Of a stretch of DNA of 64,000 nucleotides, positions 10,356 to 47,936 are shown piece after piece. Below the pieces are notes generated by a model. It ran no database searches. It was not told the origin of the DNA and was given only the letters and a program-made list of their open reading frames with translations. Every line of letters begins with the position of its first letter. Position 1 is the stretch's first letter. A program made the position numbers and the translations under genes. This DNA comes from Escherichia phage AV115: the sequence record OR352945.1; one strand, given 5' to 3'.

Positions 10356-10947
10356 CGTTATGTTCGATTGAGCTCGCTAATTCTCAACCCGTTCTCTTAT
10401 GAACTGCTGCATATTACTATGCAGACCAGACTATATCACAATCCCGGAGGGATTCTCCCCATTTCGAGTCGCTTGACCCTACGTCCGAAGACTAGTCGTT
10501 GAACCTTGCTTTGCAATTGTCGCCGTGCCATCGTTTATATGTCGATGGTGATAAATCTTTCTTTTCACAATATGGACAATTCAATTGAATTCTATTTGGA
10601 TTTAATTTGCATCTGTCATTATGTTTTAGATAAAACCCAGGACCTTTACCAATGTGACCGCAGAAATCACATGTGATTTCTTTTTGTGCAGGATGGGTTC
10701 CGTTCTTAACCATTTCTAATGTTTTTGCTGATGTTCTTCCATCAGAATCTTTAGGTATAGGCCCGTTAGCATCCATCCAAATTTTTCTATAATTCAATTG
10801 TGCATCCTCTTAAAAGTATAATCATATTTATTTTATAATATACTAATTAAAGGTGCAAGCAAAACCTTGGCTGCTAGTTTTCCTATAAAGGACTTTCCAG
10901 CAATTAAAGGAGTTTTCGATAAACGTTACCGTTTAAAGGCGCATTTT
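10356..10947 (-). mobile_element. group I intron in nrdB (about 592 nt; boundaries approximate)
   Basis: Interrupts conserved R2 sequence; 3-prime end GAACATAACG and core blocks shared with td intron. Confidence 0.8.
10492..10797 (-). CDS. intron-encoded HNH/zinc-finger endonuclease remnant (I-TevIII-like, 101 aa)
   Basis: ORF inside nrdB intron with CxxC...H...C and CxxC...HGDNC motifs; short, so probably truncated. Confidence 0.6.
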   Translation of the reverse strand: MNYRKIWMDANGPIPKDSDGRTSAKTLEMVKNGTHPAQKEITCDFCGHIGKGPGFYLKHNDRCKLNPNRIQLNCPYCEKKDLSPSTYKRWHGDNCKARFND

Positions 10948-11623
10948 ACGCAAAAGATACATAAAAACGAATAGCTTCCAATGCATTGATGACATGCAAA
11001 CAAAGATAAAGAGATTTCATTAGGTCTCGTTTAGCTTCGGTCTCTTGTTTAATAGCTCGGTTTAAACGAAGGTCGGCATCAGGAGATTCTTTAGCTTGTT
11101 CTACAAATTCTTTAGCATTTTCCCAATTACGAGTCTTGACTAGAACATCATCATAATATTTACCTATTGATTCAGCTCGTTTCATGATTGCTTCGTCTAA
11201 TACAATCTCATCAAATACTTTGGATGGATCGGTATAAAGATTTCGCATAATATGAGTATACGAACGAGAGTGAATAGTTTCACTGAATGTCCATGTTGCA
11301 ACCCACGTATCTAATGAAGGGTCGGAAAGCAGTGCCATAAGTACCGCAGATGGGGCCCTGCCTTGGATAGAATCTAATAATGATTGATACTTAAGGTTGT
11401 TTGTAAAGATGTCCTGTTGGAACTGAGGAAGCTTATTGAACTGGGCCGAATCCAGCATCAGGTTTACTTCTTCTGGTCGCCAGAAAAACGACAATTGCTT
11501 TTCAATAAGTTCTTCAAAAACTTTATGTCGCTGAATATCATAACGTGCGAGGCCAAGACCAGAACCAAAGAACATTGGTTCATTCAAAACATCGACTTGT
11601 TGTGTGTTAAAAACTGTACTCAT
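10948..11623 (-). CDS. nrdB: ribonucleotide reductase small subunit NrdB, exon 1
   Basis: N-terminal R2 sequence ending ...RFYVSFA then in-frame stop at exon/intron junction. Confidence 0.85.
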
Positions 11624-11678: not shown

Positions 11679-13943
11679 TTAAAGCTTACAAGCAGAACAA
11701 TCTTCAGCTTTAGGTGTTTCTAATTCATAGTCATCTGTACCTGACCCATCACGAGTGTTATGATAGTAGAGGTTTTTTCCGCCAAAGTACCAGAAGTAAA
11801 GCAGATCGTCAAGCATTACTGACATTGGCACTTTACCTTTCTCAAATACTGCAGGGTCATAGTAAGTATTAGCAGAAGCAGATTGGCACACCCATTTCAA
11901 CATGATAGCAACTTGGGTCAAATAAGGTTTATTACCTTTCTTAGCAAGTTTCCACGCGTAGTCGTAAAGACTCATGTTATGTTCTATATTAGGAACAACC
12001 TGTCGGAAGTTGCCTTCTTTAGATTCTTTAATACTTACAGGTCCACGAGGTGGTTCTATACCATTTGTGCTATTTGAGACTTGACTGCTTGACTCACAAG
12101 GCATGAGTGCAGACAACGTTGAGTTACGAATTCCATGTTCTTTGAGTTCAGCTCGAAGTTCTTCCCAGTCACAGACATAGTTCGGGGCTGCGATTTGGTC
12201 AATCTTTTTATTGTACCAGTCGATAGGTAATTCGCCTCTAGACCATTTAGTGTCTGAATAATACTCACAAGGTCCTTTTTCTTTGGCGAGTTTGATTGAT
12301 GCTTTGATAAGGCCATATTGCAATCTCTCGAACAATTCATGGGTCAAATCGTTAGCGTCTTCATATGAAGCAAAGTTAGAAGCTAACCATGCAGCATAGT
12401 TCGTCACACCAACACCGAGATTTCGACGCTTTTTAGCTTTTAAAGCTTCTGGAACCGGATAATCTTGATAGTCTAACAGGTTATCAAGTGCACGTACTTG
12501 TACTTCAGCAAGTTCATTAATTTTATCTTGGTCTTGCCAATCAAATTTATCTAATACAAAAGCAGATAATGTGCATAAACCAATTTCAGCATCAGGACCA
12601 TTCACATCATTAGTTGGAATAGCGATTTCACAACATAAGTTACTCTGACGAATTGGAGCTTTTTCACGAATAAACGGAGTGTAGTTATTCGTGTTATCAA
12701 CAAACTGTGGATAAATTCGAGCAGTGCCAGAACGTTCAGTCATGAACAATTCAAAGAGTTCTAGTGCTTTGATTCTTTTCTTTCTGATTGTTGGGTCTTT
12801 TTCAGCTTTCTCATAAAGCTCACGGAATTTATCTTGATCTTCAAAGAACGAGTAGTATAGTTCACCTGACATTTCGTGAGGGCTAAATAAAGTAATATAA
12901 TCATTTTTACCAAGGCGTTCCATCATAAGGTCATTAATCTGAATTCCGTAGTCCATATGTCGAATACGGTTTTCATCCACGCCTTTGTTATTTTTCAGAA
13001 CTAATAGGTTCTCTACTTCTAAGTGCCACATCGGATAATACGCTGTAGCAGCACCACCACGAATACCACCTTGAGAACAAGATTTTACTGCAGTTTGGAA
13101 ATGTTTCCAGAATGGAATAACACCTGTATGTCGAACTTCACCCGTACCGATCTTAGAACCTTCTGCACGAAGCATACCAACGTTGATACCGATACCAGCT
13201 CGTTTAGAAATATATTCAATAATTGATGCTGAAGTTTTGTTAATAGATTTTAACGAATCACCTGCTTCAATAACTACACAACTAGAGAACTGGCGAGTTG
13301 GAGTACGAGCACCTGCCATAATTGGGGTTGGCAATGAAACTTGATGAGTAGAAACGGCATCATAAAAACGAATAATATGTTTCAAACGGTCATGAGTTTC
13401 GTCTTGGTGTAAGGCCATGCCAATAGCCATGATAGCAAACTGGGGAGTTTCATAAATCTTCCCAGTTGTTTTATCTTTAACTAGATATTTTTCTTTAAGC
13501 TGCATAGCACCAGCATAAGTCAGGTCAAAGTCTCGTTCATGTTTAATCTGTGAATCGAGATAAATGATTTCTTCTGCTGAATATTGAGACAACAGCTCAG
13601 GGTCATATTTGCCTTCATTAACACAGTAAGAAATATGGTCTATAAAAGCAGGCGGTTCAAACTGCCCATATACATCTTTACGAAGTGCAAACATTAGCCC
13701 TTTGGCGGCGACATACTGATAATCAGGTTCTTCGACAGAAATCAAGTTAGCTGCAACTTTAATACAAATCTTCTGAATATCTTTGGTGCTCATCCCGTCG
13801 ACAAGATGGGTCTTAATTTCTTCATACAATTCGTATGGGTCGATTTGTGTTCCTTCACACTGCCAAGTTAATACTTGAATAATTTTCTGTGCATCAAAAT
13901 TTTGGGATACACCTGAATTTTTCACTACTTTAAAATTATACAT
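11679..13943 (-). CDS. nrdA: ribonucleotide reductase large subunit NrdA
   Basis: 754 aa; class Ia R1 features; T4 length and synteny. Confidence 0.95.
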   Translation of the reverse strand: MYNFKVVKNSGVSQNFDAQKIIQVLTWQCEGTQIDPYELYEEIKTHLVDGMSTKDIQKICIKVAANLISVEEPDYQYVAAKGLMFALRKDVYGQFEPPAFIDHISYCVNEGKYDPELLSQYSAEEIIYLDSQIKHERDFDLTYAGAMQLKEKYLVKDKTTGKIYETPQFAIMAIGMALHQDETHDRLKHIIRFYDAVSTHQVSLPTPIMAGARTPTRQFSSCVVIEAGDSLKSINKTSASIIEYISKRAGIGINVGMLRAEGSKIGTGEVRHTGVIPFWKHFQTAVKSCSQGGIRGGAATAYYPMWHLEVENLLVLKNNKGVDENRIRHMDYGIQINDLMMERLGKNDYITLFSPHEMSGELYYSFFEDQDKFRELYEKAEKDPTIRKKRIKALELFELFMTERSGTARIYPQFVDNTNNYTPFIREKAPIRQSNLCCEIAIPTNDVNGPDAEIGLCTLSAFVLDKFDWQDQDKINELAEVQVRALDNLLDYQDYPVPEALKAKKRRNLGVGVTNYAAWLASNFASYEDANDLTHELFERLQYGLIKASIKLAKEKGPCEYYSDTKWSRGELPIDWYNKKIDQIAAPNYVCDWEELRAELKEHGIRNSTLSALMPCESSSQVSNSTNGIEPPRGPVSIKESKEGNFRQVVPNIEHNMSLYDYAWKLAKKGNKPYLTQVAIMLKWVCQSASANTYYDPAVFEKGKVPMSVMLDDLLYFWYFGGKNLYYHNTRDGSGTDDYELETPKAEDCSACKL

Positions 13944-14583
13944 AATAATTCCATGTTGGATAATTTGATGATTTTAGACGGCGTCTAACCGTTTGGGTGC
14001 TCATAGATAAAATTATTGACGCTTCATTTAATGTATCATATATTACGTCGTTTATAATTACTTTCTTTGCAAATGGATTCTTAGCTCCTATCATAGCGTT
14101 AGAAATAGCTTGCTTAGTTGATTCTTTTAATGGGACTCCTTTAGAAATTTTTGTTTTAATTTTTATATTGTATTGTCCGCGTTTTTTACCTAATAAAGAA
14201 TTTCGTATCTTTTCTTTAGTCTCTTCAGATTTAACATGTCCTAGTTTGGAACGAGATATTTTATCTTTTGTTTTTTGGTCTAATTTTCGCCCTTTAAGCA
14301 AATCAACCATTTTTGCTCTAGCCCATCCAAATTCTTTATTATTTCTAGAACTCATTAAATTAACCGCGGTTGCTAAACCTAAATTGTTCGGATATATTTT
14401 TAATAAAAGAAGATGAGCCAAATAATGTTCTGAATATGTTAATTTAACTAGATTGTATGACTCATTGGTGCCACCTAAACATTTTGGGATTATATGATGC
14501 CATTCACCATCGATATCTTCAAAATTTCTTTCTTTATTTACTAAGTTTTTATATATTTTTAAATAATCCATAGTATAATCCAC
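13936..14583 (-). CDS. free-standing HNH homing endonuclease (215 aa)
   Basis: HHIIPKCLGGTNESYNLVKLTYSEHYLAH motif; 3-prime end overlaps nrdA start by 8 nt. Confidence 0.75.
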   Translation of the reverse strand: MDYTMDYLKIYKNLVNKERNFEDIDGEWHHIIPKCLGGTNESYNLVKLTYSEHYLAHLLLLKIYPNNLGLATAVNLMSSRNNKEFGWARAKMVDLLKGRKLDQKTKDKISRSKLGHVKSEETKEKIRNSLLGKKRGQYNIKIKTKISKGVPLKESTKQAISNAMIGAKNPFAKKVIINDVIYDTLNEASIILSMSTQTVRRRLKSSNYPTWNYYV

Positions 14584-14646
14584 TTTGTAGTATCAACGGG
14601 ATAGTATTTATCCCGTTAATTTATTATACACTTTTAAACTGAAGCG

Positions 14647-14901
14647 TTAATTATCCTCAGCAATAATTTCTTCGTATTCTTTAGGTGTCAAGACCGTGAT
14701 ATTGAAATAAACCAACGGTTCTTTTTCCACACCGTAACCACCACAGAATTCACGATATTCATAAATTCGTTCATGTGAATAACAAATGAATCGTTCACCT
14801 TTAACTATGATTTCACTATTCGGTGAAGGGATATCTAGTTCGGTAGGATTTTTCATTTCAAAAATTGTGGTGCCATATGAATTAATAAAACGTAAAATCA
14901 T
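14647..14901 (-). CDS. hypothetical protein (84 aa)
   Basis: ORF between td exon 2 and the HNH gene. Confidence 0.45.
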   Translation of the reverse strand: MILRFINSYGTTIFEMKNPTELDIPSPNSEIIVKGERFICYSHERIYEYREFCGGYGVEKEPLVYFNITVLTPKEYEEIIAEDN

Positions 14902-15214: not shown

Positions 15215-16230
15215 CATTATGTTCAGATAAGGTCGTTAATCTTATCCCGGAATTATATCCAGCTGCATGTCACCATGCAGAGCAGACTATATCTCCAACT
15301 TGTTAAAGCAAGTTGTCTATCGTTTCGAGTCACTTGACCCTACTCCCTAAAGGGATAGTCGTTAGGCATTTATGTAGAACCAATTCCACTTATCAGATTT
15401 TACACGGTAAGTAACTAATCCTGATGAAATTTCAAAATGTCTAGCCGCATCGGCTGCACATTCAAAAATAATCCCATCGCATGAAATCTTTTTGATGTTA
15501 GCTGGCTTTTTGCCTTTCATCTTTTCAGATAGTTTAGTTTTAGTTTTTTCTGAATGTTTGTGATTAAAGAACGGGTTATTTTCACCTGAACGTTTTCGGC
15601 ACTTTCCACAAGTATCGGCCGAAGATGGTATGCGAACACCGCATTTACAAAACTTGTGGTTTTCTGGATTCCATCGGCCATTTTTACTTCCGTGTTTACC
15701 ATAAAGAGCTTTCCGACCATCAGGACCAAGCTTAAGCATCTTAGCTTTAACAGTTTCAGCTCGTTTCTTAGCAATTTCTTCTTTTAATGGATGATTTGAA
15801 AGCACATCGCCAAAAGACGCATCAGCAATATTATATCCATTAATTTTAGAATTTAGCTCTTTAATCCAAAAATTTTCTCGTTCAATAATCAAATCTTTCT
15901 CATATGGAATTTCTTCCAGTATAGAGCATTCAAAAACATTACCATGTTTATTAAAAGACCTTTGAAATTTTATAGAAGAGTGAACACCGTTTTCAAGGTC
16001 TTTAAAATGTCTCTTCCATCTTTTCTCAAAATCTTTAGCACTTCCAACATACACTTTACCGTTTAAAGTGTTTTTAATCTGATAAATTCCGCTTTTCATA
16101 AACACCTCTTTTTATATAGAAGTATTTATTAAAGGGTAGTCCTACAATTTAGCACGGGATTGTCTACTAGAGAGGTCCCCCGTTTAGATAGATTACAAGT
16201 ATAAGTCACCTTATACCTAGGCCTAAATTA
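15215..16230 (-). mobile_element. group I intron in td (1016 nt)
   Basis: 5-prime end TAATTTAGGCCTAGGTATAAGGTGACTTATAC and 3-prime end GAACATAATG on the minus strand; length equals recalled T4 td intron. Confidence 0.9.
15362..16099 (-). CDS. GIY-YIG homing endonuclease I-TevI
   Basis: 245 aa from ATG 16097-16099; MKSGIYQIKNTLNGKVYVGSAKDFEKRWKRH closely matches recalled I-TevI. Confidence 0.9.
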   Translation of the reverse strand: MKSGIYQIKNTLNGKVYVGSAKDFEKRWKRHFKDLENGVHSSIKFQRSFNKHGNVFECSILEEIPYEKDLIIERENFWIKELNSKINGYNIADASFGDVLSNHPLKEEIAKKRAETVKAKMLKLGPDGRKALYGKHGSKNGRWNPENHKFCKCGVRIPSSADTCGKCRKRSGENNPFFNHKHSEKTKTKLSEKMKGKKPANIKKISCDGIIFECAADAARHFEISSGLVTYRVKSDKWNWFYINA

Positions 16231-19200: not shown

Positions 19201-19854
19201 TTAATACTTACATGATTTGATTGTTTCTATGAACAATTTCTTAGCAGCATTTCTATCGATTTGAAGTATTTTTCGATATGCCTTTAATTTGGTAGAATAA
19301 TTTTGCCAGACTAAGTTATCGGTGAGTTCGTCGTGCTTATCTATAATATTCAAAAACGAGTCCAACAATAAGAAAGTTTCAAATGAAATTATATTGCTTT
19401 GTAGCAATTTAAATATGTAGCTCGACTGAACGTTGTTATTATAATCAAATATCTCTTGAAGCGCACTAACTTCAACTTTCTTACTGAAATAGTAGATGTT
19501 ACGTACGTCTTCAGCAAACGTCTCCTTGGCTTGTTTGAGACGTCCAATATATTCCCTATAGAAAACTAATGCATCAGCGTCTGATATCTCACCAATCCAT
19601 GCGTCTTGGTTAGCAACTAAGTTGCTTATGAATATCAAGGTGAGTTCCTTCAATTTATATTTCTCTGCTAGTTTTTCAAAGAAATATTTATCTCGGCGTT
19701 TTTGATACGCATTATCCGAAACACGCATGCACCAGTTATATTTGATTACGTCATACCGACCACCAAAGTGGTTTTTGCACATCAAGTATAGTTTATATAC
19801 TGATTTTCCATTAATATAACGTTCTCCGTCAGGAGGCATGCGTATTTTAATCAT
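19201..19854 (-). CDS. 59: helicase loader gp59
   Basis: 217 aa; near-identical to recalled T4 gp59. Confidence 0.9.
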   Translation of the reverse strand: MIKIRMPPDGERYINGKSVYKLYLMCKNHFGGRYDVIKYNWCMRVSDNAYQKRRDKYFFEKLAEKYKLKELTLIFISNLVANQDAWIGEISDADALVFYREYIGRLKQAKETFAEDVRNIYYFSKKVEVSALQEIFDYNNNVQSSYIFKLLQSNIISFETFLLLDSFLNIIDKHDELTDNLVWQNYSTKLKAYRKILQIDRNAAKKLFIETIKSCKY

Positions 19855-20530
19855 AGTTCCATCCAGGCCATTTTGAAGATTTAAGTCTATATGTAACTAA
19901 AGACGCAGAAATATTAAAAACATTTGAAACTTCTTTACACGAGGCGTATTTTACACCATCAATAATTATAGGTTTTTGTTTTTTAATAGTTCTTTCTTTA
20001 GAATGCGGCTTTGAATTTGCTATTCTAAGAGCTTCTTTGGTTGAATCAGGCATCGGCTTATTCGTTTTTCGCCCTTTTCGGACTTTACTCAAGGCCAATT
20101 TGTGAGCTTCAGATAGTTTCTTACCCTTATTAGGTGACGGTATTTTTCTTTCTAGTCTTGTTTTAGATACTTTAGCCTTAGTCTCTTCAGATCTAGGTTT
20201 ACCTAATTTAGAAAGTGAAATAGACCTTTTAGCTTCATCACTTTGTTTTTTACCAGGACCACCTTTACCACCGGGAACTAAGTTATAAGTATCATCTCGC
20301 AAAACAAAATCTTCATTAACCAATTCTGCTTCTTTTTTATAGGCGTCCTTGTCATTATCATATTCATAAAGAATTTCGGTATAAAAATTTTTTAGTCCAT
20401 ATTTAGCTTTGGCCGCTAATATAGCGCGGCCTGATCCAATATACCAATCTTTCTCTTTATGTTTTTTGTGTACGCCTATATAAATTTTACCATTTATTTT
20501 ATTGGTAGTTTTATACACAACGTATTTCAT
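19847..20530 (-). CDS. free-standing GIY-YIG homing endonuclease (seg-like, 227 aa)
   Basis: N-terminal VVYKTTNKINGKIYIGVH GIY-YIG motif, basic C-terminal DNA-binding region. Confidence 0.75.
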   Translation of the reverse strand: MKYVVYKTTNKINGKIYIGVHKKHKEKDWYIGSGRAILAAKAKYGLKNFYTEILYEYDNDKDAYKKEAELVNEDFVLRDDTYNLVPGGKGGPGKKQSDEAKRSISLSKLGKPRSEETKAKVSKTRLERKIPSPNKGKKLSEAHKLALSKVRKGRKTNKPMPDSTKEALRIANSKPHSKERTIKKQKPIIIDGVKYASCKEVSNVFNISASLVTYRLKSSKWPGWNYD

Positions 20531-20865
20531 AATAAGAAATCTAGCGTATTAGTTTTTTCACCACGAGCAACTGATGGGCGAAGCATGTTTTCGTCAATTG
20601 CTTCGCTTGTAATTTTTTCAACAATTCCTGTAGGAATAAATTTAGCAAATTGTGTTTCTGGAATAGAATTTTCTTCCAAGAAAGCAGTTGTTGCTTCTAA
20701 ATAAGACATACCAAATTGTTCAACCATGGATTCGATAATGAATCCGTTTTCTTGACGGTCAAGCAATTTAGCGATATCATCTTTATCGTGTTTTACTGCT
20801 AATTCTTGTTCAGATAAACCGGCCTCATCAACCGGTTTAATATCACTTAGTGAAAACTGTGTCAT
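20527..20865 (-). CDS. 33: late transcription co-activator gp33
   Basis: 112 aa; near-identical to recalled T4 gp33. Confidence 0.85.
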   Translation of the reverse strand: MTQFSLSDIKPVDEAGLSEQELAVKHDKDDIAKLLDRQENGFIIESMVEQFGMSYLEATTAFLEENSIPETQFAKFIPTGIVEKITSEAIDENMLRPSVARGEKTNTLDFLL

Positions 20866-44624: not shown

Positions 44625-44640
44625 AGCTCCCGAAGGAGCT
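44625..44640 (-). terminator. UUCG hairpin between HNH gene and glycosyltransferase gene
   Basis: AGCUCC-UUCG-GGAGCU on minus transcript. Confidence 0.35.
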
Positions 44641-45437
44641 TAGGACATCCAACACATTTTATAACCTTTGCAGGTTCTGTTAGGATTATTTAATGCTTTC
44701 AATATATTAGAAGACCCTATATCTAAATACTCCCTTAATTCATAAAGATAGTTAAAATCAATAGTTTCACCTGTTTTTACACTTGTGATTCTTATAGGCC
44801 TTCTTTCATATTTAGATTTATACAACTCTCTAGTCTTAGCTTTAGTTTCTTCTGACCTAGGAGTGTATGGTTTAAATCCTTTTGTTTTAAATGTTTCCAT
44901 TCTTGATTTAGTTATTTTATCCTGGTGTTCTTTTGTTTTTACAGGTGCTTTTCGCCCATTCTCCCAAGATAACTTGTTGGCCTGTATTATTTTATCTATT
45001 GCTTCTTGCGTATGAGTTTTACCATAAAATGGATTTAATTCGCCTATACGTTGTGAAGCAATATGTGACATTAATTCTCTTGTTGCTTTAGTATGTTTTT
45101 TACCTTTAAATGGATTGCCATTTTTAGCAATCCATTCTTTCATAAATCTAGAGTGCTCTTTAGAGAATTCTTGTTTAAGCCAATCATAATCTCTAGAATT
45201 TCTAGCTCCCATGTAAAAAGCTCTAATAGCCATAAGCATAGAACGGTTCTTATGAATTTTATAAAGCAATAAATGGGCGATAAAATGCTCTCTAGGGGTC
45301 ATTTTAACTAGATTTGATTTAGCATTACTCCCACCCATAGATTTAGGCAAAATATGGTGAGTTTCAGTATAATTAGGAATAGTGCTGCGGTTTTTAGCCG
45401 CAGCGATAAGTTTATCATAAATTTTACGATAATTCAT
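44640..45437 (-). CDS. HNH homing endonuclease (mobA-like position, 265 aa)
   Basis: THHILPKSMGGSNAKSNLVKMTPREHFIAH motif and NPFYG/NPFKG repeats; ATG overlaps gene 39 stop as TAATG. Confidence 0.75.
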   Translation of the reverse strand: MNYRKIYDKLIAAAKNRSTIPNYTETHHILPKSMGGSNAKSNLVKMTPREHFIAHLLLYKIHKNRSMLMAIRAFYMGARNSRDYDWLKQEFSKEHSRFMKEWIAKNGNPFKGKKHTKATRELMSHIASQRIGELNPFYGKTHTQEAIDKIIQANKLSWENGRKAPVKTKEHQDKITKSRMETFKTKGFKPYTPRSEETKAKTRELYKSKYERRPIRITSVKTGETIDFNYLYELREYLDIGSSNILKALNNPNRTCKGYKMCWMS

Positions 45438-47260
45438 TATCCTAGCATCCAATCTTTACGGAGTTCAGGGTCGTTACCCATGAGCATTTCAAATAGTTCT
45501 TTCCAATTTTCAGGAAGTTTAACTACGTCGTACACAGGGTTTTGAATCATTTCTTTATATTCATCCCGCTGAAGTGAGCCCAATCCCTTGATGTATCGAA
45601 TACTATGCTTAGGCAGTGTATCTTTAACTTCTTCATACTCAGCTACAGTATAAAACCATTTTTGAGTTTTGCCAATTTGTGCAATAATTACAGGCGTTTT
45701 AACAAAGCGAATACGTCCTTGTTCAAACAATTCAGGCCAATTACTAAAGAAAGCAAGCAAAGCCGGATAAATACTTCCAAGGCCGTCATGATCGGCATCG
45801 GTCATAATTGCAATATTACGGTAGTTCGTATTCTCTGCCTTTTCACCAAGAATAAGACCGGTGATAGCACAGATATCAAAGAGCTCTTTGTTCTTCATCA
45901 TATCAGCATATGACATACCCCAGCTATTCATCACCTTACCACGTAATGGGAATCCGCCGTGTAGTTCACGGTCACGAACATCAATGAGATAACCAATTGC
46001 AGAATCACCTTCTGTTAAGAACAATGTCGTATCTGCATCTTTACCGCATTGGTTAGCTTTAATATGCTTATGAACCTTAGCTTTAGTTGCCTTTTTAGCT
46101 GCTTTAGTTTCTGCAGCCTTTTCTGCTGCCAATTTACGAGCTAATGCGGCTTCAATTATAGGCATTAAAACTGCTTCAGAATTCAAAATATTTTTTGCCA
46201 ATTTTTTTGTATCTAATTTAATATGCGTCCGAATTTCGCCATAAGGACTTGTTAAACGCTCTTTGGTTTGGGAATCAAAACGAAGGTTCTTCATTCCACG
46301 AACGAACATTAAGAGAGTGAGACATTCCTTGATGCGCGCTTTAGTCACGTCGATTTTATATTTGCGTTTAATAGCCGGAATTAATTCTTCGCAAATGTCG
46401 TCCATCACACATTCAATGTGATGACCACCGTTTTTGGTATGGATGTTATTCACATAAGTTAAATGACGGAAGCCATCTGGTGACCGTCCAATGGCAATAG
46501 AGCATCCGTCTTGTTCTTGAATGATGGTCTCTTCATCAAATTGTTTAGCAAACTTCTTAAAGTTACCTTGAATCTTTTTGCCATTAAATTTAAATTCAAT
46601 ACCAGGATAAACGACCGCCAATGTTTGGAGCCGGTCTATAGTAATATCTTGGTATATTTTTTCAAATTGATTCATTTCAAAATGTGAGAAATCAGGAATA
46701 AACTCGACCTTAGTACCGTTGTTTTTAGACGGCTTAGATTTCCAAGAAATATTATCAGCGTTATTAGAACAATTAACGGTCAATTCATTTTTACCATCTG
46801 AAGTAGTGCCAACAAAAGAGACAGAAAAAATATTTGTTAATGAAGAACCGACACCGTTTTGTCCACCCGTAACACGTTCTTTGTCGTCACCAAAGTTGCC
46901 ACCGGCTTTTGTACGTGTCCACGCCGCAACTGGTCCTGGAATTTCTTCTCCTTCAGGAGTAATAACTGTTTCTTGAGGAATACCTCGACCATTATCTTCA
47001 ACAGTCACTTTATTAGAATTTAAATCAATACTAACGGAAATTTTATTAGCATATTTGAAATTGGTTCGAATAGCTTCGTCTACTGAGTTGTCAATAATTT
47101 CATCAATTAATTTGAGAACACCTGCAACATATTTAACCTTTTTAAATTCACCGAATAGGAAACGTTCTTGTTCTTCATTGGCAACACTTCCAATATACAT
47201 GCCAGGACGCTTCAAACAATGCTCTTTATCAGATAGCATTTCAATTTTATTATCAATCAT
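45437..47260 (-). CDS. 39: DNA topoisomerase II large subunit gp39, unsplit 39+60 form
   Basis: 607 aa from ATG 47258-47260; GyrB-like ATPase and Toprim regions in one ORF. Confidence 0.9.
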   Translation of the reverse strand: MIDNKIEMLSDKEHCLKRPGMYIGSVANEEQERFLFGEFKKVKYVAGVLKLIDEIIDNSVDEAIRTNFKYANKISVSIDLNSNKVTVEDNGRGIPQETVITPEGEEIPGPVAAWTRTKAGGNFGDDKERVTGGQNGVGSSLTNIFSVSFVGTTSDGKNELTVNCSNNADNISWKSKPSKNNGTKVEFIPDFSHFEMNQFEKIYQDITIDRLQTLAVVYPGIEFKFNGKKIQGNFKKFAKQFDEETIIQEQDGCSIAIGRSPDGFRHLTYVNNIHTKNGGHHIECVMDDICEELIPAIKRKYKIDVTKARIKECLTLLMFVRGMKNLRFDSQTKERLTSPYGEIRTHIKLDTKKLAKNILNSEAVLMPIIEAALARKLAAEKAAETKAAKKATKAKVHKHIKANQCGKDADTTLFLTEGDSAIGYLIDVRDRELHGGFPLRGKVMNSWGMSYADMMKNKELFDICAITGLILGEKAENTNYRNIAIMTDADHDGLGSIYPALLAFFSNWPELFEQGRIRFVKTPVIIAQIGKTQKWFYTVAEYEEVKDTLPKHSIRYIKGLGSLQRDEYKEMIQNPVYDVVKLPENWKELFEMLMGNDPELRKDWMLG

Positions 47261-47936
47261 TAGATTTTCTCTCAAATTGCATGACTATATTTTTGTATGA
47301 ACCTTCCGGAAATCCACGTTTAATGCTTTCTTTAGCAAATTTCCCAACCTTTGGTTTATCCAATTCTAACCATAATTTATATAAAGCAGATTCATATTCC
47401 CATACAGGACTTTTACGATTTTTAAGCCCACACTTTATAAGCGCTTCCTTTGTATGTTTCTTATTATAAAATGGATTGTTTTTGCCACTCATTGCTTTAG
47501 AATGTTCCGGGCGCTTAATTCCATACATCGGATTAAGATCGCCTTTCTTGATAACGGATTGTAGTTCAATAGTTTCTTCAGAGTGATTGTGTCCATAAAA
47601 TGGATTTAACTCTTTTGAAACATCCATACCAAAGCACCCATCGACTGTGGCATAAGACATGTTGAAAAATTTTTCAGATTTAACCACATTATGCAATTTC
47701 TGGTAATACAACTCACAAAACGTCGCTTCTTCCCGTGTATCAAATTCGCCAATAATACATGAATCAAATAAATGAGGATTATCTTTTATCTCTTTATCAT
47801 AAATTTGTTTATATTTTTTCGACTTTACCGTACCATGATAGTGATTGTTTGTATGTTTATCAAGATAAGTAGACCCTATATAAAACGGTGGCAACTTATC
47901 GCCTGTGTATATTGTTAAGTATGTTATGTATTTCAT
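47253..47936 (-). CDS. GIY-YIG-like homing endonuclease (seg-like, 227 aa)
   Basis: N-terminal YITYLTIYTGDKLPPFYIGST and repeated NPFYG/NPMYG/NPFYN motifs; overlaps gene 39 start. Confidence 0.65.
   Translation of the reverse strand: MKYITYLTIYTGDKLPPFYIGSTYLDKHTNNHYHGTVKSKKYKQIYDKEIKDNPHLFDSCIIGEFDTREEATFCELYYQKLHNVVKSEKFFNMSYATVDGCFGMDVSKELNPFYGHNHSEETIELQSVIKKGDLNPMYGIKRPEHSKAMSGKNNPFYNKKHTKEALIKCGLKNRKSPVWEYESALYKLWLELDKPKVGKFAKESIKRGFPEGSYKNIVMQFERKSND

Follow-up and report, generated by a model that had tools for sequence, protein, structure and literature searches.

A Candidate Mob-Type HNH Homing Endonuclease Gene on a Sharply Bordered Cassette Upstream of nrdA in a Minority of Mosigvirus Phages

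Results

The window analyzed here, a 64,000-nucleotide stretch of Escherichia phage AV115 (OR352945.1), carries on its minus strand an HNH homing endonuclease gene (13936..14571) located between an 84-aa nrdA.2 homologue (14647..14901, minus strand; DUF5496, PF17600 at E 8e-12) and nrdA (11679..13943, minus strand; 754 aa in the ORF list and GenBank), which is the downstream and probable target gene. The upstream neighbor bears the name nrdA.2 in the annotations of mar005P1, PhAPEC2, and ATK47. The initial annotation had described a 215-aa ORF with an HNH signature whose end overlaps nrdA by 8 nt, and this is what we find: the ORF spans 13936..14583, the quoted motif WHHIIPKCLGGTNESYNLVKLTYSEHYLAH is present in it, and its last 8 nt (13936-13943) lie within the 754-aa nrdA ORF. 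The placement of the gene between td and nrdA holds in part, in that it is upstream of nrdA but is separated from td exon 2 by the nrdA.2 homologue.

The 215-aa reading of the ORF list begins at a GTG at 14583. The in-frame ATG at 14571, which gives a protein of 211 aa, is probably the real start, since GenBank records use it and since M1 is invariant in the family alignment, where the N-terminal consensus reads M-N/D-Y-x-K-I-Y. A CDS for the gene is annotated in GenBank for AV109, WFL6982, SSE1, a20, and NRG-P0074, and over the ORF the window matches Mosigvirus phage AV109 at 100% identity. The match to PHROG 655 ("homing endonuclease", E 2e-45) and the 251 homologues of the protein at E<=1e-5 argue against a chance ORF.

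Alignment with HNH-less Mosigvirus genomes places the gene within a 681-bp mobile cassette (13914..14594, minus strand), which comprises the HNH gene, a 23-nt leader, and a rewritten nrdA 5' end, and which stands in place of a 56-nt segment of the "empty" allele. The borders mapped in this way are sharp and are identical in all carriers examined. The cassette overwrites the nrdA Shine-Dalgarno and codons 1-7 with a new start of 10 codons (MYNFKVVKNS, 13914..13943, minus strand; MQV(T/N)KSS in the HNH-less relatives), and nrdA is 2265 nt long in HNH+ genomes versus 2256 nt in HNH- genomes. The new start overlaps the HNH stop within ATGTATAA, and its length is T4-like, with 13 residues before SQxF, as in T4 NrdA. 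All 11 HNH carriers have this 30-nt rewritten start and none of 218 others does, the latter aligning only from nt 31 on. A donor or "scar" allele, in which the rewritten start would occur without the HNH gene, is found neither among the 229 matching phage records nor as an exact match in IMG/VR viral contigs.

At the left border of the insertion is a conserved hairpin (AACGGGATAAATACTATCCCGTT; 14595..14617, minus strand), upstream of which a consensus scan finds a promoter-like site (TTAACG, 16-nt spacer, TATAAT; 14623..14650, minus strand). Both elements are also present in the empty allele, and the latter, a putative promoter, is the sole candidate to serve the HNH gene and nrdA. A late promoter inside the cassette was considered and rejected, as no late-promoter TATAAATA is found within it. 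We also considered RNA structure that would hide the HNH or nrdA start; nothing significant is seen around the nrdA start (z -1.2 and +0.8), and these values provide no support for regulated translation or coupling through RNA structure. Only the upstream hairpin, common to the empty allele, folds strongly.

The N-terminal part of the protein carries an HNH (beta-beta-alpha-metal) catalytic core (residues 23-53; 14413..14505, minus strand), whose columns E23, H25, H26, N40, E48, H49, and H53 show little or no variation in an alignment of 46 homologues, with H25, H26, N40, E48, H49, and H53 being invariant. The catalytic residues of the domain are all intact. Single-sequence Pfam HNH models remain below threshold (HNH_5, E 0.036), T4 MobE passes PF01844 (24.6 bits, cut-off 21.4), and a single-sequence PDB search is uninformative. 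In a comparison to the PDB, E values of 6e-4 to 2e-3 link the family profile to the HNH motifs of Cas8f-HNH, a group II intron maturase, and McrA (E 6e-4 for the last), and the pattern E-x-HH-[IV]-IP...GG...N...L...H is part of the profile that aligns to the HNH motifs of solved nucleases. The AF2 model (pLDDT 85) suggests a beta-beta-alpha core, with strands at residues 23-26 and 41-44 and then a helix at 46-59. On the basis of its conserved His, Asn, and metal-ligand motif, the protein is assigned to the HNH (beta-beta-alpha-metal) superfamily.

The core is followed by NUMOD3 helical repeats that form a linker and DNA-binding module (approximately residues 95-134; 14170..14289, minus strand; PF07460 at 25.4 bits, cut-off 20.4), and by a C-terminal helix-turn-helix DNA-binding domain of the I-TevI type (residues 160-209; 13945..14094, minus strand). 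For the C-terminal domain, PF20987 gives 24.9 bits, a marginal value just below the 27-bit cut-off. The I-TevI DNA-binding domain 1i3j is hit by the family profile (E 2.5e-3) and is also the best PDB match in a Foldseek search with the AF2 model (E 8e-3, probability 1.0, 31% identity), with I-HmuI second. The protein has an I-TevI-type DNA-binding module made up of NUMOD3 and the helix-turn-helix; this likeness to I-TevI does not imply the same target.

The records of WFL6982 and WFK annotate the gene as a group I intron-encoded endonuclease, an assignment that we reject in view of the lack of intron RNA and of a GIY-YIG match. TIGR01453 gives 31 bits against a cut-off of 56 and matches the C-terminal DNA-binding part only, Pfam finds no GIY-YIG domain in the protein, and Rfam gives no group I intron signal in 13900-14650. 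Such signals are confined to td (15263-15493) and nrdB (10407-10644), and the HNH gene is therefore free-standing. A group I intron or intein context is likewise rejected, as Rfam has no matches at the locus and nrdA is an uninterrupted 754-aa ORF.

The cassette occurs in 11 phage records, always at the nrdA.2/nrdA site. These carriers are 11 of ~151 Mosigvirus (RB69-like) genomes; among records of the genus lacking the HNH gene, the slot is empty in ~116 and is occupied by nrdA.1 in 24. In Tequatrovirus, 490/504 records have the order nrdA.2-nrdA.1-nrdA and no HNH gene, and T4 and T2 have nrdA.1 at the slot and mobE downstream of nrdA. The proposal that this is a mobile insertion placed differently from mobE is borne out by these data, as T4 and T2 have no HNH gene at the slot and there are 11 carriers versus ~140 genomes without the gene within the genus. 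Rather than being fixed in T4 and all relatives, the slot is polymorphic, and the Mob-type HNH element at nrdA.2/nrdA is limited to a minority of Mosigvirus phages. In a search of 5.8 billion proteins, the close relatives form one 90% cluster, with the next-best match being <=50% identical, and the sole metagenomic contig with a 98% variant of the gene has the same genomic context.

The same nrdA.2/nrdA interval holds a GIY-YIG gene in Tequatrovirus phage N2 (ON645936), where it too displaces nrdA.1, although it is on the opposite strand and belongs to an unrelated nuclease family. The N2 protein is 45% identical to an I-TevI-like ORF, and its similarity to the HNH protein is marginal and C-terminal. 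The presence of this unrelated gene shows that homing endonuclease genes have settled in the nrdA.1 slot more than once. In the literature we found no account of an HNH element here, and the site just upstream of nrdA is previously undescribed for a Mob-type HNH gene.

On average, pairs of carriers differ by 0.82% in the cassette and by 3.0-3.1% in the flanking 600-700 bp on each side. The carrier backgrounds are mosaic and nearer to HNH-less phages than to one another; the SSE1 flanks, for example, are closest to the HNH-less phage ST0 (2.67%), and the content of td intron, nrdB intron, and seg genes varies among carriers. Substitutions in the HNH gene are mostly synonymous, and no copy examined has a disrupted ORF. 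The low divergence of the cassette together with the mosaic flanks points to recent horizontal spread. The low divergence could in principle also reflect one recent origin followed by recombination in the flanks, with no endonuclease-driven homing. Over 12.6 kb, the fixed differences between carriers and non-carriers consist only of the junction blocks and two single sites, in a comparison of just 5 HNH+ and 4 HNH- genomes. Apparent fixed differences at 14206-14478 are an alignment artefact, since the 56 nt of the empty allele were distributed over the gap opposite the cassette.

Discussion

We consider it likely that the gene encodes a free-standing Mob-type HNH homing endonuclease carried on the 681-bp cassette, which spreads by homing initiated by a nick or break and is plausibly aimed at the nrdA start. 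Such an aim is suggested by the junction blocks as the only consistent carrier/non-carrier differences, by the perfect linkage of the rewritten nrdA start to the HNH gene, and by T4 mobE, which lies directly upstream of nrdB, overlaps its start, and nicks nrdB at nt 122-126. The HNH gene, which appears to have no promoter of its own, would depend for transcription on the promoter-like site normally used by nrdA. During mixed infection, the C-terminal module of the enzyme would bind a genome lacking the HNH gene, the enzyme would nick or cut this genome in or close to the region where nrdA translation starts, and recombinational repair on the HNH+ template would then copy the cassette into the recipient. 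The carrier is proposed to be immune to the enzyme because the cassette has replaced the target sequence, and nrdA translation in carriers would probably be coupled to, or reinitiate after, the HNH ORF. The exclusion of nearby nrdA or td alleles in mixed infection, which the initial annotation had raised, may reasonably be expected by analogy with T4 MobE (PMC2790892).

As for the target, it is possible, if somewhat doubtful, that the nrdA translation-initiation region is itself the recognition site and that the cassette protects its carrier with a substitute start (codons 1-10, no Shine-Dalgarno, and the overlap within ATGTATAA). If true, expression of the RNR large subunit would be translationally dependent on a selfish gene, which would amount to an addiction-like lock that hinders clean loss of the element, and a free-standing Mob-type enzyme would display the coincidence of target and insertion site that is typical of introns. 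For this class, a junction target would be unusual, since most free-standing T4 endonucleases that have been characterized cleave at a distance of hundreds to thousands of bp from the gene that encodes them (PMC2988022).

The same habit of cutting at a distance would fit an active enzyme whose cleavage site lies elsewhere, whether deeper in nrdA, in td, or in nrdB, with the rewritten nrdA start being co-converted donor sequence. MobE nicks nrdB at nt 122-126, inside the gene (PMC2790892), and the T4-like length of the new nrdA start is consistent with import from another lineage. A distant target would, however, leave the carriers unprotected, because no other consistent carrier/non-carrier polymorphism is seen within ~6 kb on each side in our small sample, and carriers with an intron-less td or nrdB (WFL6982, SSE1, and L019) match non-carriers at the fixed sites of the homing-site regions. 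Some homing endonucleases tolerate or cut their own genome. On the basis of these data, we regard a distant cleavage site as unlikely. The specific case of td as the target, to which the I-TevI-like DNA-binding domain might point, is unlikely as well, as the carriers WFL6982, SSE1, and L019, with their intron-less td, have no protective fixed differences.

It is quite improbable that the gene is an inactive or domesticated remnant of one acquisition, transmitted by vertical descent and ordinary recombination and maybe retained only for nrdA translation. Its rarity among Mosigvirus genomes, the single protein cluster with no close relatives elsewhere, the occurrence of every copy at one site, and the overlapping-ORF arrangement in place of the nrdA Shine-Dalgarno would all be in keeping with such a history. 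Against it, the catalytic residues are all intact, the substitutions are mostly synonymous, and the cassette is ~fourfold less diverged than its immediate flanks, in backgrounds nearer to HNH-less phages than to each other, so that recent lateral spread fits better than old vertical descent.

With the homing endonuclease reading that we favor, the locus extends the set of homing endonucleases known around T-even td-nrdA-nrdB by a sixth, non-orthologous Mob-type HNH element, whose borders mark a new insertion site to the base pair. Natural alleles of all three kinds (empty, nrdA.1, and HNH) occur in otherwise ~95-98% identical cultivable coliphages, several of which come from one collection (AV109 to AV118). 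They lend themselves to studies of how nicking HNH enzymes promote homing and of whether a selfish element is stabilized when it overwrites the start codon region of a host gene. The element is nevertheless an ordinary kind of selfish gene, and the general picture is unchanged.

Comparison with Known Systems

The protein is homologous to all five of T4 MobA-MobE (33-45% identity, E 6e-26 to 3e-16) and orthologous to none of them. With MobA, MobB, MobC, and MobD, it shares the HNH domain, at 35-45% identity over the first 70-140 residues (E 1e-17 to 3e-16), whereas these proteins are encoded at other loci and have other C-terminal domains. The resemblance noted earlier to the window's second HNH gene (44640-45437) is confirmed at 34% identity over 149 aa (E 6e-21). 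That gene also belongs to PHROG 655 and, like T4 mobA, adjoins topoisomerase gene 39.

Among structurally characterized enzymes, the C-terminal ~65 residues resemble the NUMOD3 and helix-turn-helix of the I-TevI DNA-binding domain (PDB 1I3J/1T2T) at 31% identity. The I-TevI nuclease, however, is GIY-YIG rather than HNH, and the HNH protein, unlike I-TevI, is not intron-encoded. I-HmuI, the HNH nicking endonuclease of Bacillus phage SPO1 (PDB 1U3E), differs in being intron-encoded, and the similarity to it is weak.

T4 MobE offers the most extensive parallel. The T4T annotation agrees with the initial annotation in placing mobE between nrdA and nrdB, where it is immediately upstream of nrdB and overlaps its start. 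Both proteins belong to PHROG 655 and combine an N-terminal HNH domain with NUMOD3 (33% identity over 178 aa, E 6e-26), and both genes are situated in the aerobic RNR cluster, directly upstream of an RNR subunit gene whose start they overlap. Neither gene appears to have its own promoter (PMC2790892 for mobE), and both are polymorphic among relatives. We nonetheless reject the HNH gene as a mobE orthologue, given its position upstream of nrdA and the 33% identity to MobE. The genes in the mobE position of Mosigvirus LF82-1, Moonvirus KM16, and Tequatrovirus ELT1 are 33-37% identical to the HNH protein, and in the window nrdA and nrdB are separated by just 55 bp, which contain no ORF. The two elements thus differ in site, with mobE at nrdA/nrdB and the HNH gene at nrdA.2/nrdA, and in the C-terminus, which in MobE gives only weak zinc-finger-like matches and here is an I-TevI-type helix-turn-helix. 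Nicking and homing are demonstrated for MobE and are predicted for the HNH protein, and of the two only the HNH cassette is described as rewriting the first codons of its downstream gene.

Results

On the coding strand, the gene order in this region is frd, td exon 1, the I-TevI-like intron ORF, td exon 2, a nrdA.2 homologue (DUF5496; 14647–14901, minus strand), the HNH gene, nrdA (11679–13943, minus strand, 754 aa), and, after a 55 bp gap, nrdB exon 1. The initial annotation had placed the HNH gene between td and nrdA; it does lie directly upstream of nrdA, but nrdA.2 intervenes, so td is not its direct neighbor. The ORF (13936–14583, minus strand; 215 aa counted from a GTG) contains the HNH-like motif originally noted, WHHIIPKCLGGTNESYNLVKLTYSEHYLAH, and its final 8 nt cover the nrdA ATG, as had been described. 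Translation probably begins at the ATG at 14571 instead, which would give 211 aa, since five GenBank records annotate it and an invariant Met, followed by N/D-Y-x-K-I-Y, occurs there in the family alignment. The gene is free-standing, as proposed: the group I intron signals detected by Rfam are confined to the introns of td and nrdB, with none within 13900–14650. The records that carry the ORF label it “homing endonuclease”, “HNH homing endonuclease”, or “group I intron endonuclease”, the last of which is wrong.

The protein matches PHROG 655, “homing endonuclease” (E 2e-45), which also takes in T4 MobE, the HNH gene at 44640–45437 of the window, and the mobE-position gene of LF82-1. BLASTP against T4 MobA–MobE reveals homology to all five at 33–45% identity: MobE is 33% identical over 178 aa (E 6e-26), and MobA–D are 35–45% identical to the first 70–140 residues (E 1e-17 to 3e-16). 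On the basis of this membership and these identities, we assign the protein as a Mob-family paralogue that is orthologous to none of the T4 Mob proteins. It forms a single 90% cluster in a collection of 5.8 billion proteins, the next relative being at most 50% identical. Residues H25, H26, P29, G34, N40, E48, H49, and H53 are invariant across 46 aligned homologues, and the profile of this alignment matches, in the PDB, the HNH motifs of McrA, Cas8f-HNH, and a group II intron maturase (E 6e-4 to 2e-3) and the I-TevI DNA-binding domain (E 2.5e-3). As a single sequence, the protein scores below threshold with Pfam HNH models, passes for NUMOD3, and falls slightly short for the I-TevI DNA-binding domain. 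The AlphaFold2 model (mean pLDDT 85) has a beta-beta-alpha core at residues 23–59 and helical repeats; at its C-terminus are a small sheet and a helix-turn-helix.

The suspected resemblance to the second HNH gene (44640–45437, minus strand; 265 aa from ATG; PHROG 655 E 1e-55) holds at 34% identity. That gene directly follows the fused gene for the topoisomerase large subunit (39/60; 45437–47275, minus strand), abutting or overlapping its stop. T4 mobA lies between genes 39 and 60, and the second HNH gene looks like a mobA-like element next to an unsplit topoisomerase gene.

The ORF is 100% identical in the Mosigvirus (RB69-like) coliphages AV109, AV114, AV116, and AV118 and 98.6–99.1% identical in seven further records; beyond these 11, no phage record matches at megablast sensitivity. 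The flanks are matched by ∼155 records (≥90% identity), and only these 11 span the gene. Within Mosigvirus, the slot has three main states: “empty” (an 87 bp spacer) in 116 records, occupied by nrdA.1 (DUF4326) in 24, some of which have a small ORF in addition, and occupied by the HNH gene in 11. The T4T interval reads td, nrdA.2, nrdA.1, nrdA, mobE, nrdB, in keeping with the initial annotation, which put mobE between nrdA and nrdB, and nrdA.2-nrdA.1-nrdA is uninterrupted in 490 of 504 Tequatrovirus-level matches, T2 included. The HNH gene, missing from T4 and T2, is therefore clearly not fixed among relatives; the initial suggestion of a differently placed mobile insertion is supported.

Cassette borders were mapped by alignment to HNH-less genomes. 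The left border directly follows a conserved hairpin (14595–14617), and the right border (13914/13913) falls within nrdA. The 681 bp cassette (13914–14594) replaces 56 nt, TGGAGT...GAGGAATATATGCAAGTAACTAAGAGCAGT, containing the nrdA Shine–Dalgarno sequence and codons 1–7, with the HNH gene and a new nrdA start, ATGTATAATTTTAAAGTAGTGAAAAATTCA. The NrdA N-terminus is consequently MYNFKVVKNSGVSQNF in carriers versus MQV(T/N)KSSGVSQNF in HNH-less relatives (754 versus 751 aa); T4 NrdA, MQLINVIKSSGVSQSF, has an N-terminus equal in length to that of carriers. The rewritten 30 nt start is confined to the HNH-carrying records (11/11), and in the remaining 218 records matching this query the alignment begins at nt 31. 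The new ATG sits in the final codons of the HNH ORF (ATGTATAA) with no strong Shine–Dalgarno sequence before it, and this overlapping layout leads us to infer that nrdA is translationally coupled to the HNH ORF. RNA folding gave no structure backing such coupling, and no late promoter (TATAAATA) occurs within the cassette. This rewriting of the downstream gene's start is the one mildly unusual feature of the insertion.

A promoter-like site (TTAACG-16 nt-TATAAT, 14623–14650) overlaps the nrdA.2 stop and precedes the hairpin. Both elements lie between nrdA.2 and nrdA in the empty and HNH alleles. The nrdA.1 allele of phage mar005P1 (L003, 2064–2369), compared with window 14595–14660, has neither; the three alleles therefore differ in regulatory DNA upstream of nrdA besides gene content.

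Pairwise comparison of five distinct carriers gives a mean divergence of 0.82% for the cassette, against 3.0% for the left flank (620 bp) and 3.1% for the right (700 bp). Outside the cassette, SSE1 is nearest to the HNH-less phage ST0 (2.67%), the other carriers being at 3.2–6.7%. Carriers also vary in whether they have the td intron, the nrdB intron (whose I-TevIII-like ORF is full-length in some and truncated in others), and a seg-like gene before gene 59. Given this divergence contrast and these mosaic backgrounds, the cassette looks younger than the surrounding DNA and appears to have entered different backgrounds. Substitutions inside the HNH gene are mostly synonymous, and all copies examined are intact. 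Recent lateral spread by recombination fits better than old vertical descent.

The region holds other mobile elements. The td intron (15218–16227, minus strand) encodes a full-length I-TevI-like GIY-YIG endonuclease (15362–16105) whose GIY-YIG, zinc finger, NUMOD3, and I-TevI DNA-binding domains each pass the Pfam threshold; among HNH carriers, the intron is present in AV109, a20, and NRG-P0074 and absent from WFL6982, SSE1, and a Logan contig (L019). A group I intron (10407–10797, minus strand; 35.9 bits with Rfam Intron_gpI, less than the gathering score) interrupts nrdB, exon 1 of which is at 10946–11623. The endonuclease ORF of this intron is short, annotated at 101 aa in AV109, against 269 aa in WFL6982, a20, and NRG-P0074, a difference that points to truncation of an I-TevIII-like gene, as is the case in T4; SSE1 lacks the intron. 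The Seg-like GIY-YIG homing endonuclease gene (∼19848–20531, minus strand), upstream of gene 59 (helicase loader), is found in AV109 and SSE1 and missing from a20, NRG-P0074, WFL6982, and the HNH-less comparators; it is a further independently assorting element within the same 12 kb. AV111, an HNH-less Mosigvirus (L002, OR352941; 2153–4287), has its nrdA annotated as a truncated CDS of 475 aa, with a gene labeled “homing endonuclease” after it, so that nrdA itself appears to be interrupted by another mobile element, an arrangement that recalls the mobE-split nrdA of phage Aeh1.

Discussion

By its homology with T4 MobE, the HNH protein most likely nicks or cuts DNA at a specific site, which would trigger recombinational repair with the carrier genome as template. 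T4 MobE is promoterless, nicks T2 nrdB at nt 122–126, and drives co-conversion (PMC2790892); in the T4T annotation, mobE lies directly upstream of nrdB and overlaps its start. Over 12.6 kb, consistent differences between carriers and non-carriers, in a small sample of five versus four, are limited to the two junction blocks and single sites at 12393 and 9470. As other consistent differences are nearly absent, self-protection is most simply explained by a target overlapping the sequence that the cassette replaced, the nrdA start region, which is common to the empty and nrdA.1 alleles; insertion would then protect the carrier. This placement is uncertain, given the sample size and since the cleavage site of characterized free-standing T4 enzymes is usually remote from the enzyme's own gene (PMC2988022). 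Co-conversion is predicted to lead to marker exclusion of td and nrdA alleles nearby, in line with the initial proposal.

A literature search found no paper describing this element, which is previously uncharacterized and belongs to a well-known sort of homing endonuclease. The nrd genes are a well-known homing endonuclease hotspot, with mobE, the nrdA-splitting mobE of Aeh1, I-TevIII, and Hef as examples (PMC2988022, PMC3045599). True mobE-position genes occur in Mosigvirus LF82-1, Moonvirus KM16, and Tequatrovirus ELT1, but share just 33–37% identity with the HNH protein. In Tequatrovirus phage N2 (L018, ON645936; 1748–2479), whose td intron is about 248 nt without an ORF, the same nrdA.2/nrdA slot holds a 243-aa GIY-YIG endonuclease gene, which is on the opposite strand, replaces nrdA.1, and is unrelated to the HNH gene; its product is 45% identical to the I-TevI-like ORF of the window. 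The nrdA.2/nrdA slot is therefore a recurrent landing site.
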